DNA of 63,885 bases, counting the filler, from Octopus bimaculoides (taxonomy: Eukaryota), in the NCBI RefSeq assembly GCF_001194135.2. It is 6 parts of 5 records of this genome, joined end to end, with 100 filler letters (N's around TTAATTAATTAA, not from the genome) between each part and the next. Parts side by side here need not be neighbours in the genome. Positions count along the whole stretch, not along the records: positions 20,277 to 33,378 come from NC_068987.1; positions 33,479 to 53,755 come from NC_068996.1; 4 more parts are not named here. The stretch is one strand, 5' to 3'. A program made the translations under genes and the position numbers. The stretch's first letter is position 1. Each line of letters begins with the position of its first letter. Positions 24,665-51,355 of this stretch are shown in pieces. The notes under the pieces were generated by a model. The model did no database searches. It was not told the DNA's origin and saw nothing but the letters and a program-made list of their open reading frames with translations.

Positions 24665-24875
24665 ACTTACCGCCAAGCCAACATGGCAGTCCAAAATATA
24701 GGACGAATGCTGCCGTTGACTAGCTTCAAGAGGCAATCGCCTCTAGCTAGTTATGTGACACACGAACCTATGTCCATTATAACCTTTGAAAAGGGAAGGT
24801 CAGCTGCTTCCCCTTGCTAGTCTGGCATCTACAGACTAGTTTCAGGGTGTTTACTCCATATCAATGTAGAGCAGC
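24665..24875 (-). mobile_element. Short non-coding hammerhead-headed element
   Basis: Same block order as 51150-51355. Confidence 0.65.
24828..24870 (-). ncRNA. Degenerate hammerhead, same family as 34619 and 51308
   Basis: UCUACA-UUGAUAU-GGAGU aaac ACCCU-GAAA-CUAG-UC-UGUAGA; stems intact, core mutated. Confidence 0.6.
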
Positions 24876-24949
24876 AGAACCCAGCAGGCGTCACTACTGA
24901 CCGTCTGTACGAAGGATTATTTACCTAAATTCAGTGGAAAACATCTATA

Positions 24950-25480
24950 TATATTTATATATATATATATATATATATATATATACATATACAGATATTT
25001 ATATACATACATATATTCATATTGATGTACATACATATATTCATATTGATATACATACATATATACATATTTATATACATACATATATACATATTTATAT
25101 ACATACATATATACATATTTATATATATATATACATAGATATTTATATACATACATATATACATATTTATATACATATATACATATTTATATATATATAA
25201 AAATTTACATATAAAAATTTACATATATATATATATAAAAATTTACATATATATATATATAAAAATTTACATATATATAAAAATTTACATATATATAAAA
25301 ATTTACATATATATAAAAATTTACATATATATATATAAAAATTTACATATATATATATAAAAATTTACATATATATATATGTATATATATATATATATAT
25401 ATATATATAAAAATTTACATATATATATATGTATATATATATATATATATATATATATACACATTTACATATATACGTAC
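24950..25480. repeat. Compound AT minisatellite (atacatatttat and aaaatttacatatat units)
   Basis: Direct inspection. Confidence 0.85.
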
Positions 25481-25485
25481 ATATA

Positions 25486-26003
25486 TCATCATCATTGTTT
25501 AACGTCCGCTTTCCATGCTAGCATGGGTTGGACGATTTGACTGAGGACTGGCGAACCAGAAGGATGCACCAGGCTCCAATCTGATCTGGCAGTTTCTACA
25601 GCTGGATGCCCTTCCTAACGCCAACCACTCCAAAAGTGTAGTGGGTGCTTTTACGTGCCACTGGCATGAGGACCAGTCAGGCGGTACTGGCAACGGCCAC
25701 GCTCAAAATGGTGTTTTACGAGCCCCCTGCACAGGAGCCAGTCCAGCGGTGCTGGCAACGACCTTGCTTGAATGTTTTTTTCACATGCTACCAGCACAAG
25801 TACCAGTAAGGTGACGCTGGTAACAATCATGCTCAAATGGTGCTATTTACGTGCTATTGGCACGGGAGCCAGACAGCTGCTCTGGCAATGATCATGCTCG
25901 GACGGTGCTCTTAGCGCTCCACTGGCACAGGTGCCAGTCATCGAATTTGGTTCAATCACGATTTTGATTCCACTTGCCCCAACAGGTCTTCACAAGCAGA
26001 GTT
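25486..26003 (-). mobile_element. RTE LINE 3' UTR and tail
   Basis: Same ggaaagcggacgttaaa(cgat)n terminus and UTR repeats. Confidence 0.8.
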
Positions 26004-26226
26004 GAATTTGGATCGATTTCATTTGCCATACATACATATATATATATATATATATTTATATATTGGAAAAAATAAGGTACCCAGATATCTGGATGGTTGT
26101 ACATTTACAGATTTTTATTAATATGTCACATGTTTTATAAATATTAGTGCTTGCACCTATTCTTGTAGGTTCTTCAAAATATGCTTTCACTTCAGAGGAT
26201 CTGTCTCTTTTTATAATATTATTGAA

Positions 26227-48630: not shown

Positions 48631-48668
48631 CCTTTATATTTCGGGCGTAAGTGCGTATCTTCAGAAGA
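48631..48668 (-). ncRNA. Minimal type I hammerhead (AUAU stem III)
   Basis: UCUU-CUGAAGA-u-...CGCCC-GAAA-UAU-A-AAGG; core intact, stem II degenerate; about 500 bp from the Penelope remnant. Confidence 0.6.
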
Positions 48669-49139
48669 ATACAGTCAAAGACTGTATTTTCCTGACTGTA
48701 TTATTCCTCTGAAGATTATTCTTCTGACTGTGTGATAGGCTTTTGTGCCTGAGATACAAAGGTCGTTTCAACTTACTGCATTGTCAGAAACTTCCCTCAT
48801 TTCTCATTTCATTCATTACACTACTTCTGTACTACTATGCTTTGAGCGAGCTACAACGCTTTTCTATCTATAATATTTTCTACAAATATTATTGTGCAGT
48901 TGTTCAACTCATATACACACTTGCGTACGCACACATATAAACACACACAGTCACACACATATATATAAACACGTACACACACACACGCACACACACACAC
49001 ACACATATACATACATGCATATATATATATATATATATATATATATATATATATATATATATATATATAGGTATGTATGTATGTATGTATGTATGTATAT
49101 CTGCCAATGAGCAGATTTTTAGCAATCATGCACATACTT

Positions 49140-49800
49140 ATAATTTGGCTTTCATAAATAGTGGTTTTAATAAGAAAATAATATACATTAAAAATACATT
49201 ATTTAGAATTAAGTTCGTTCAAATGATTCCAAACCTGGGCAATCTAAATATAGATGTCCCATATGATATTGATCCTCTTGAACTCAGGCTACAATATTGA
49301 TACAATAGGAGAAATAAGAATTTAAATTATAATGGCACGGGGAGCCTTAATTTGACCAAGGAATTTTTAAAAAGCAACGTCCACGGAAACGGGACATTAT
49401 TTGGTTTTCCACTGTTTTCCCTACAGGTTAAGAACCTTCCTAAGATGTTCTTTAAATTAATTGAGAAAAACGTCCCCTTGACGCATAAGTATCATTGTAT
49501 TTTTAGTAAATCAACCTTGAAACTTTCCTATTCCACGACGTCGATCATTGCTACAAATAATAGACTTAAACTACGAAATAAAGTTGATAGTAATGGTAGT
49601 AAAGCGGGATATAATAACGAAGTAGATGGTTCCGCGAAAAAATTATTGTAACTGTCGTTCCGGGAATGCCTGCCCTTTAGATGGTCAATGCTTACGTAAT
49701 AATGTAGTGTATAAAAGAGCCTAAAAGCGTGTATATTGGAAGTACCACGATGTTTTCAAAGTCAGGCATAGAGTGCATTTAAATTCATTTATAAATAAAG
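49140..49800 (+). mobile_element. Penelope-like element remnant: RT C-terminus plus GIY-YIG endonuclease
   Basis: Across frameshifts: AFINSGFNKK, PRKRDIIWF, KMFFKLIEKN..KYHCIFSKSTLKLSYS, CNCRSGNACPLDGQCLRNNVVYK, VYIGSTT, FKVRHRVHLNSF. Confidence 0.88.
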
Positions 49801-51149
49801 AGTGAAAAAATTCAACAGCCTTGACCTTTTGTATTAACAAATCAAAAAATTGCAATAAGACATACTCCCTAAAATGGTTAATTACAGGCGAGTATACTTC
49901 ATGTTATATTAATGTAAATTAAGCTTAAAAGAAGCTATTAATATATTATGAACTTACTTACTAAGATCTCTGAGATTTTGATCTCATGTCGACACAACCT
50001 TCTTTCAACTTTAAATTTTTTTTTTTTTTTCAGTTAAATAAAAAATATATAAGCTGATTAGATGTCCGTATCTAGTTTTTGACTCACCCTGGATGCTATT
50101 CATGCATATGATTTAGATCAGCTATAGATATACAATTTCTTCTATCTTTAGTAGTTATACGATATGAAAATTTGTTTTATGCTTATGCACTCCGGATTTT
50201 TTGAAATTTTTATACTTTTTTTTATTTTTAACTTGTTTCAGTCTTTTGACTGTGGCCATGCTGNNNNNNNNNNNNNNNNNNNNNNNNNNNNNNNNNNNNN
50301 NNNNNNNNNNNNNNNNNNNNNNNNNNNNNNNNNNNNNNNNNNNNNNNNNNNNNNNNNNNNNNNNNNNNNNNNNNNNNNNNNNNNNNNNNNNNNNNNNNNN
50401 NNNNNNNNNNNNNNNNNNNNNNNNNNNNNNNNNNNNNNNNNNNNNNNNNNNNNNNNNNNNNNNNNNNNNNNNNNNNNNNNNNNNNNNNNNNNNNNNNNNN
50501 NNNNNNNNNNNNNNNNNNNNNNNNNNNNNNNNNNNNNNNNNNNNNNNNNNNNNNNNNNNNNNNNNNNNNNNNNNNNNNNNNNNNNNNNNNNNNNNNNNNN
50601 NNNNNNNNNNNNNNNNNNNNNNNNNNNNNNNNNNNNNNNNNNNNNNNNNNNNNNNNNNNNNNNNNNNNNNNNNNNNNNNNNNNNNNNNNNNNNNNNNNNN
50701 NNNNNNNNNNNNNNNNNNNNNNNNNNNNNNNNNNNNNNNNNNNNNNNNNNNNNNNNNNNNNNNNNNNNNNNNNNNNNNNNNNNNNNNNNNNNNNNNNNNN
50801 NNNNNNNNNNNNNNNNNNNNNNNNNNNNNNNNNNNNNNNNNNNNNNNNNNNNNNNNNNNNNNNNNNNNNNNNNNNNNNNNNNNNNNNNNNNNNNNNNNNN
50901 NNNNNNNNNNNNNNNNNNNNNNNNNNNNNNNNNNNNNNNNNNNNNNNNNNNNNNNNNNNNNNNNNNNNNNNNNNNNNNNNNNNNNNNNNNNNNNNNNNNN
51001 NNNNNNNNNNNNNNNNNNNNNNNNNNNNNNNNNNNNNNNNNNNNNNNNNNNNNNNNNNNNNNNNNNNNNNNNNNNNNNNNNNNNNNNNNNNNNNNNNNNN
51101 AAATCTCTGAACGAGGTGTAAACAACAGCTGCACGACAACGTGATATAT

Positions 51150-51355
51150 ATTTGCCACTTAAATGCGGCTAAACCCTAAGGGTGAATGTTACTGTAGCTT
51201 GTAGCCCCAGGAGAACATCTCCTCCAGCTGGCTATTGACACACTTTATGTGCCCTGTCGGTATTTGCAAAGGGAAGTCATCCTTCCTATCATCGATCTGG
51301 CGTGATACGCACGGACCCGGGTTTCTGGGTATTTACTCTTCGTCAGCGTACGACA
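51150..51355 (-). mobile_element. Short non-coding hammerhead-headed element
   Basis: Collinear with 24665-24875, both arms of 34306-34791 and truncated 30865-30965. Confidence 0.7.
51308..51352 (-). ncRNA. Minimal type I hammerhead ribozyme, apparently intact
   Basis: Minus strand: CGUACG-CUGACGA-a-GAGU aaau ACCC-a-GAAA-CCCGGG-UC-CGUGCG; 6-bp stem I, palindromic stem III, GUC site. Confidence 0.8.

Follow-up and report, generated by a model that had tools for sequence, protein, structure and literature searches.

Minimal hammerhead ribozymes with a palindromic stem III are carried by Penelope-like elements (PLEs), where, according to the relevant sections of Cervera and de la Pena 2014 (PMC4209133), they mostly stand alone and sometimes form pairs on opposite strands 100-700 base pairs (bp) apart. 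Animal retrozymes are described in the corresponding part of PMC7229834 as tandem units of 150-450 bp that give rise to circles, and a preprint (bioRxiv 10.64898/2026.07.22.740005) that sampled no mollusc argues that retrozymes derive from PLE ends. Non-circular permutations of the hammerhead were reported in 2023 without host or role; in the passages of Eckert et al. 2023 (PMC10085705) that treat them, types SGC and CSG come from metatranscriptomes only and from no genome of a known organism. As for the Naiads, the passages of Craig et al. 2021 that describe these PLEs (PMC8557442) report no canonical hammerhead and flag partial cores as 'HHR_core' and 'HHR_half_core'. Here, a stretch of 63,885 nucleotides (nt) of the Octopus bimaculoides genome (NCBI RefSeq assembly GCF_001194135.2; six parts joined end to end, filler included), hereafter the window, was analysed. 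It consists of AT-rich animal DNA, full of microsatellites and with many gaps, and it holds both a family of repeats headed by minimal hammerheads (copies A-E) and two repeats in which the hammerhead core appears in a rearranged order (S1 and S2). The A-E family is real and known in kind, whether its members are non-autonomous units or solo pseudo-long terminal repeats (pseudo-LTRs). The rearranged motifs, which matter more than the A-E family, are predicted to self-cleave and likely sit at the 3′ ends of Naiad-type elements. All positions below count along the window.

A family of repeats headed by minimal hammerheads

Copy C (34470-34791, plus strand) is a near-complete unit of ~350 nt without its tail, with a leader at 34470-34617 and a body running to 34791; its intact minimal type I hammerhead at 34618-34659 (core 34624-34630, GAAA 34644-34647) has a predicted cut after 34653. 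Copy D (51150-51352, minus strand) also combines an intact minimal type I hammerhead with the body, and has an 8-nt palindrome (core 51346-51340, GAAA 51325-51322, predicted cut after 51314). Copy B (34280-34469, minus strand), which ends at (TA)n, is the inverted, 5′-truncated partner of C; its head is cut by the inversion junction, so that stem I and most of the core are gone. Copy A (24668-24876, minus strand) is flanked on both sides by (TA)-rich microsatellites and carries the five-helix body described below; the core of its head (24870-24828) is mutated at three positions (24864-24858) and likely dead. Finally, copy E (30862 to about 31000, minus strand) is a headless body with terminal hairpins.

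An earlier note on this DNA, made from the sequence alone, had proposed that these copies, including the headless one, are related, and this is borne out by leave-one-out profiles with E values of 3e-8 to 3e-17. Specifically, A is recovered at 5e-15, D at 3e-17 and E at 3e-8, and B and C, when both are removed from the profile, at 1e-10 and 2e-10, all this at pairwise identities of 47-60%, except for B/C (89-93%, with 93% over 164 nt). The size of ~200 nt given to the family has to be revised, since the B/C unit measures ~350 nt: positions 34470-34615 belong to the repeat, and a tail of ~30 nt follows after 34791. What the note missed, within the interval that it covered, are the pair of rearranged hammerheads and further pieces of Penelope type.

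The heads were assessed with a strict descriptor of the minimal type I hammerhead, using 300 local dinucleotide shuffles on both strands as control. The descriptor matches twice in the window, at C and D, versus one match in the 300 shuffles, and of the 5′ hammerheads attributed to the headed copies those of C and D have an intact core (two of four), the cores of A and B being broken. Stem I, said to stay paired as its sequence changes, has six of six pairs in A and D and five of six in C, which shows a G.G mismatch; a cytosine at 34620 in 99 of 99 RNA reads brings stem I of copy C to six of six. The stem III palindrome is present in all four headed copies, as claimed. Its two central bases in copy C change in numbers that match (X21, 62 and 61 of 114 reads; X22, 28/62 and 28/63 reads), the linkage of the two changes being deduced from these counts, and the variant is another palindrome. 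The apparent lack of conservation of the 10.1-11.1 pair proves to be a numbering effect: once stem II may be flanked by a single unpaired base on either side, G10.1-C11.1 is found in A, B, C and D, together with an extra base after A9 in all four, and stem II measures 3-4 bp. Rfam covariance models returned no hammerhead up to an E value of 10 over C plus S1 or over S2, and a scan of the whole window returned none among the best 150 of 346 matches.

The body folds into five helices. In A, B, D and E (C was omitted as a near twin of B), 92% of 87 cells are paired, compared with 33-53% in slid controls, and nine of 22 pairs show two-sided change, values that 0-1 of 500 shuffles attain; since the fold was both derived from and tested on one set of four sequences, these figures are supportive and not conclusive. 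Such a structured body may be the signal that is recognised by the Penelope protein. Near-perfect hairpins also occur upstream of the hammerheads of C (34494-34514, plus strand) and D (about 51375-51410, minus strand), and the reads add one pair to the former.

The arrangement of B and C carries the marks of a PLE insertion. More specifically, an inverted, 5′-truncated copy lies directly against the beginning of a direct copy, a tail of ~26-30 nt is present at one end only (on B, 34280-34305) and there are (TA)n flanks; the passages of PMC8557442 on PLE insertions likewise describe an inverted, 5′-truncated copy at the 5′ end and a tail of 30-40 bp at one end. Further evidence comes from reads, of which 4 of 24 runs were aligned to the 521-nt stretch 34490-35010 at 80% likeness (results cover the best 40 of 245 variants, 15 of 71 joints and 24 of 926 loose ends). 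This stretch is matched by 8018 and 6730 contigs in two organisms, the C and S1 families being counted together, so that both families are abundant; read depth here does not equal copy number. A head-to-tail joint leading from 34791 to 34490 is found in 13 and 10 RNA reads and in the DNA runs. Together with the tail and positions 34470-34489 it indicates a unit of ~350 nt, the letters between the joint ends not being given, and because it occurs in DNA as well it does not demonstrate circles. The loose ends beyond 34791 correspond to the terminal 26-30 nt of B, a segment that C lacks and that abuts (TA)n.

Non-autonomous element or solo pseudo-LTR

Taken together, A-E are probably copies of a non-autonomous, PLE-mobilised structured repeat of the retrozyme type, headed by a minimal hammerhead. 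The anatomy of the hammerheads, the covariation of the body, the insertion hallmarks and the head-to-tail joint all support the earlier proposal of a ribozyme-bearing, Penelope-linked and probably non-coding family, and none of the window frames searched gave open reading frame (ORF) homology in copy C. The kind to which the family belongs is already known, both from PLE minimal palindromic hammerheads and from retrozymes.

In the cycle that we envisage, read-through of two adjacent ~350-nt units would pair their palindromes into one stem III of 6-8 bp, and the dimeric hammerhead would then cut after GUC. The resulting unit-length RNA, linear or circular, would be bound via the five body helices, and its reverse transcription would begin internally at the tail boundaries; in the relevant part of PMC11167929, internal initiation explains the tail of the anole Poseidon element in vitro. 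Fold-back or template switching would yield the inverted truncated copy, and reinsertion at (TA)n would depend on a reverse transcriptase-endonuclease of Penelope type, provided in trans. Most genomic copies would be dead solos, transcribed passively inside host transcripts.

Several observations weigh against this proposal. The head-to-tail joint has one contig in each DNA run behind it, and its letters are not given. About two thirds of the reads over 34490-34528 run into other sequence, which could lead to an autonomous element, 89-90% of the reads continue into unlike flanks, and only 1/1078 and 3/1072 reads reach 99% likeness to the window locus. Both read strands are equally represented (library strandedness is not stated), read ends do not pile up at 34654 or 34828, a weak test in fragmented complementary DNA libraries, and the window holds no tandem copy of A-E. 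The folding z-scores of single body sequences, from -1.2 to -3.0, are modest, and for copy A the opposite strand folds equally well. Finally, cleavage by the hammerhead of the anole element is protein-assisted and dispensable for insertion in vitro, as reported in the pertinent part of PMC11167929, and eight of nine Xenopus retrozyme dimers stayed uncleaved in the section of bioRxiv 10.64898/2026.07.22.740005 that deals with them.

It is possible, if rather doubtful, that A-E are instead solo pseudo-LTRs, namely the 3′ ends of 5′-truncated autonomous PLEs of several subfamilies, with no separate non-autonomous cycle. Animal minimal hammerheads are mostly solos ascribed to truncated PLEs in the corresponding sections of PMC4209133, and autonomous PLEs also leave an inverted copy and a tail, as passages of PMC8557442 indicate; read depth drops from the body to the head, and most reads over 34490-34528 continue differently. 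However, the 146 nt upstream of the C hammerhead have no endonuclease similarity, the reads join the tail back to the same leader and thus delimit a ~350-nt unit with no space for an ORF, and the lone PLE ORF remnant of the window lies on the strand opposite D and has no homology to A-E. No ORF with reverse transcriptase (RT) and GIY-YIG domains adjoins any A-E copy within the window. A frame over the C leader was considered as an endonuclease C-terminus and rejected, its sole match being a chance one to a bacterial repeat protein. That the host has adopted A-E as a family of structured non-coding RNAs, or that their motifs are due to chance, is very improbable: the body is indeed structured, but thousands of variant contigs, truncations, dead cores and insertion hallmarks speak against adoption, and the shuffles exclude chance.

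Searches further afield looked for relatives of the non-autonomous repeat. No tRNA-derived head was found. A degenerate head pattern picked out 3 viral and 40 metagenome loci, with the family body in 0/43 (best profile E value 0.03) and none of the 43 showing a palindromic stem III plus stem I, and the viral and prokaryote contigs searched contained no exact match to motifs of the C or S1 family. The A-E motifs were not found in the Naiad, Chlamys and Hydra consensus files, in which line breaks could hide matches. The repeat annotation of O. vulgaris counts 31 recently active PLE families, and the word ribozyme is absent from its relevant part (PMC13282606); the A-E family may already be in existing octopus repeat libraries.

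Rearranged hammerheads in S1 and S2

The window was scanned for all six possible orders of the hammerhead blocks, with 100 shuffles as control. Full hammerhead cores in the order site-GAAA-CUGAnGA are present in S1 and S2, with scores of 37 and 36 versus a shuffle maximum of 30; a third match, with a score of 26, is at chance level for its order. The S1 repeat (34815-35000, plus strand), a 5′-truncated member of the second abundant family that ends at a microsatellite, lies directly behind copy C, and its motif at 34822-34884 comprises the site block (34822-34833), GAAA (34844-34847) and CUGAnGA (34873-34879), with a predicted cut after 34827. The S2 repeat (36340-36555, minus strand) is a diverged relative whose 5′ side enters an N gap; its motif spans 36481-36404 (block-order match 36462-36404, GAAA 36442-36439, CUGAUGA 36415-36409), with a predicted cut after 36458. 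Stems I and III measure 6 and 5 bp in S1, and 7 bp and 4 plus 10 bp in S2 (stem I 36457-36451 with 36422-36416; stem III 36474-36459 with 36439-36423). Most positions of these two stems differ between S1 and S2 with pairing kept, and both repeats share a 3′ end motif that is followed by a microsatellite.

For stem II, a split fold is favoured, though not settled, in which its 5′ strand would come from upstream and be detached from CUGAnGA. The latter would be docked by stem I alone, and the three helices would cross one another as pseudoknots. In S2, an upstream strand at 36481-36475 can form seven contiguous pairs with the 3′ strand at 36449-36443, and a split model with the stem II partner upstream of the site block scores 44 versus a maximum of 37 in 300 shuffles. 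For the S1 family, loose ends at 34815/34817 offer a 5-base partner for 34839-34843 in five of seven rows among the matches listed. The arrangement of S2 is outside the six permutations of Eckert et al. 2023, in whose pertinent passages CUGAnGA is assumed to be inseparable from stem II (PMC10085705). On the other side of the balance, the split-model score of S1 (36) is inside the shuffle range, the S1 copy, being 5′-truncated, is without an upstream stem II strand, and two larger loose-end rows of S1 RNA (90 and 75 reads) have no upstream partner.

S1 and S2 might alternatively be plain type-SGC hammerheads, a reading that we regard as tenable but unlikely, in which stem II is formed by the bases right after CUGAnGA and the upstream pairing is an inhibitory alternative. 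Four downstream pairs are possible in the S1 copy and four of five in S2, one spider Naiad fits this fold by eye, and the two larger RNA rows just mentioned lack the upstream partner. However, the fourth downstream pair of S1 is weakened in most reads (34884 is changed in 526/542 RNA reads), the upstream helix of S2 with its contiguous pairs scores 16 versus 8, and coral Naiads, read by eye, lack a downstream partner and possess one of 6 bp upstream. We are similarly sceptical of the idea that the rearranged motifs do not cleave at all and are hammerhead-derived signals for protein binding or for the start of reverse transcription. It would agree with the fact that no reads terminate where the cut is predicted, with a split model that has no covalent A9-to-stem II link, and with PLE hammerheads that can be dispensable in vitro (in the part of PMC11167929 concerned); against it, S1 and S2 hold all catalytic core bases, and core-adjacent variants fall at the free positions N7 and H17, among the best 40 of 245 variants.

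The junction between C and S1 is peculiar in itself. C ends in a perfect 16-bp fold-back that is followed by an 11-nt duplication at the S1 junction (34767-34803, plus strand), and at 34792-34828 this fold-back end is fused to S1 via short microhomology and the duplication, which suggests a template jump between two PLE families. In each of the two DNA runs, read depth at 34792-34828 is close to that of a single copy.

A probable link to Naiads

Of the 54 Naiad consensus sequences of PMC8557442, 53 were read by eye over their last 260-400 nt, together with the context around six motifs, and the statements on Naiad folds in this section are based on that reading. Rearranged hammerheads were recognised at 16 of the 53 3′ ends. 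Six of these, all from nematodes (Nbra 1-3, Hcon, Hpol and Asuum), show the full type-CSG fold with three stems, and in them an extra helix joins stems I and II. The other ten (Obim, Ovul, Esco, Amil, Aacu, Anas, Movir2, Chem3, Ptep and Smim), equal to about seven independent families, combine the S-G-C order with a stem I and a stem III; seven of the ten have their stem II partner on the upstream side, Ptep has a local hairpin, Smim a weak downstream helix, and Esco is unclear. S2 resembles the 3′ ends of Naiad_Obim and Naiad_Ovul. The 'HHR_core' and 'HHR_half_core' flags coincide with several Naiad ends bearing rearranged motifs, as far as the flagged part of PMC8557442 goes. In the remaining 37 ends, all bivalves included, no such motif was seen in the part displayed.

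We give roughly even odds to the proposition that Naiads across invertebrates carry working non-circularly permuted hammerheads, of type CSG in nematodes and of a seventh topology in octopus and cnidarians. This seventh topology, which belongs to the same evenly balanced proposition, would be one in which the CUGAnGA block lies apart from stem II and stem I alone docks it. What counts against placing S1 and S2 in Naiad-type elements is that no sequence search linked either of them to a Naiad protein. A 58-amino-acid (aa) upstream frame matched nothing, and both copies are truncated or gap-cut on the upstream side. Literature searches returned no octopus hammerhead paper beyond Craig et al. 2021 and none on permuted Naiad hammerheads other than the sources named here and works citing them, with subscription journals mostly outside their coverage.

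Naiads may also have swapped ribozyme classes. The 3′ end motif of Naiad-1_Movir is reminiscent of a twister ribozyme. Bivalve and hemichordate Naiad 3′ ends, like that of Naiad-1_Movir, show other conserved motifs (all sequences from file S5 of PMC8557442).

Other elements in the window

A broken Penelope-like ORF remnant with RT thumb, cysteine linker and GIY-YIG lies at 49097 to about 50000 (plus strand) and matches P0001 at 40% over 180 aa (E value 1.5e-23). P0001 was deposited under the name 'GATA zinc finger domain-containing protein 14-like'; judged by eye, it resembles Hydra-clade RT, and it looks misannotated. The only protein to match a frame of the window is recorded from Octopus bimaculoides (50% identity). 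The remnant is followed by a decayed hammerhead-like stretch near 50052-50100. It was rejected as a parent of D on account of its strand and lack of homology.

Two further inverted pairs are present. The first, at 28047-28373, belongs to another family (86% over 142 nt) and has a minimal hammerhead-like core in each arm, which is a typical Penelope arrangement. In the other, at 48581-48813 (73% over 97 nt), the minus-strand arm contains a short palindrome besides a CUGAAGA core and GAAA. Beside copy E, a 232-aa frame at 30138-30836 (minus strand) looks like the C-terminal part of an RTE-type long interspersed nuclear element, with no real Pfam match, and an exon-like frame at about 4760-4950 (plus strand), also without a Pfam match, resembles INO80 complex subunit B.

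Comparison with known systems

The A-E family would extend Penelope-dependent retrozymes to cephalopods. The consequences of the Naiad reading, if it is true, would reach further: the Naiad motifs would be the first hammerheads of rearranged order from animal genomes, the hammerhead would be restored as a near-universal feature of PLEs, and the view of Naiads as lacking a ribozyme would be overturned. Their position at Naiad 3′ ends would provide thousands of genomic copies for covariation analysis, and the reshuffling of ribozyme blocks would become testable. Furthermore, were a core to function with no link from A9 to stem II, the known design space of the hammerhead would be widened.

With the minimal type I hammerheads of PLEs, as presented in the relevant sections of PMC4209133, A-D share CUGANGA plus one extra base, G10.1-C11.1 and a palindromic stem III, as well as the mostly solitary occurrence and the pairing on opposite strands. 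The supplement of that paper includes limpet and oyster examples, and the supplement file searched has no octopus entry. Unlike the Schistosoma PLE hammerheads of the same sections, A-D have a stem II of 3-4 bp and not 7-8; a short helix II is common in Hydra-clade motifs, so a long one is not defining for all PLE hammerheads. They also depart from the consensus given in PMC4209133 in the extra base before GAAA and in the conserved five-helix body, although unpaired bases flanking stem II or preceding GAAA are also found in Hydra-clade and PLE-X1 hammerheads in the portion of PMC8557442 file S2 that covers them. Animal non-LTR retrozymes resemble A-E in having a type I hammerhead, a ~350-nt unit, a head-to-tail joint, no ORF found and many monomers; A-E differ from them in a minimal, dimer-type head in place of a canonical one and in explicit PLE insertion hallmarks.

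As for the rearranged motifs, S1 and S2 share with type SGC, as described in passages of PMC10085705, the S-G-C order, three mutually crossing helices and a short link between stems I and II, and the nematode Naiad ends, with their additional helix, fit type CSG by eye. Unlike the types of Eckert et al. 2023, S1 and S2 are located in animal repeats, and the best stem II partner of S2 lies upstream of the site block. Their rearranged fold is undescribed in the Naiad passages of Craig et al. 2021 (PMC8557442), and the microsatellite flanks and 5′ truncation reported in those passages for Naiads are features that S1 and S2 share.

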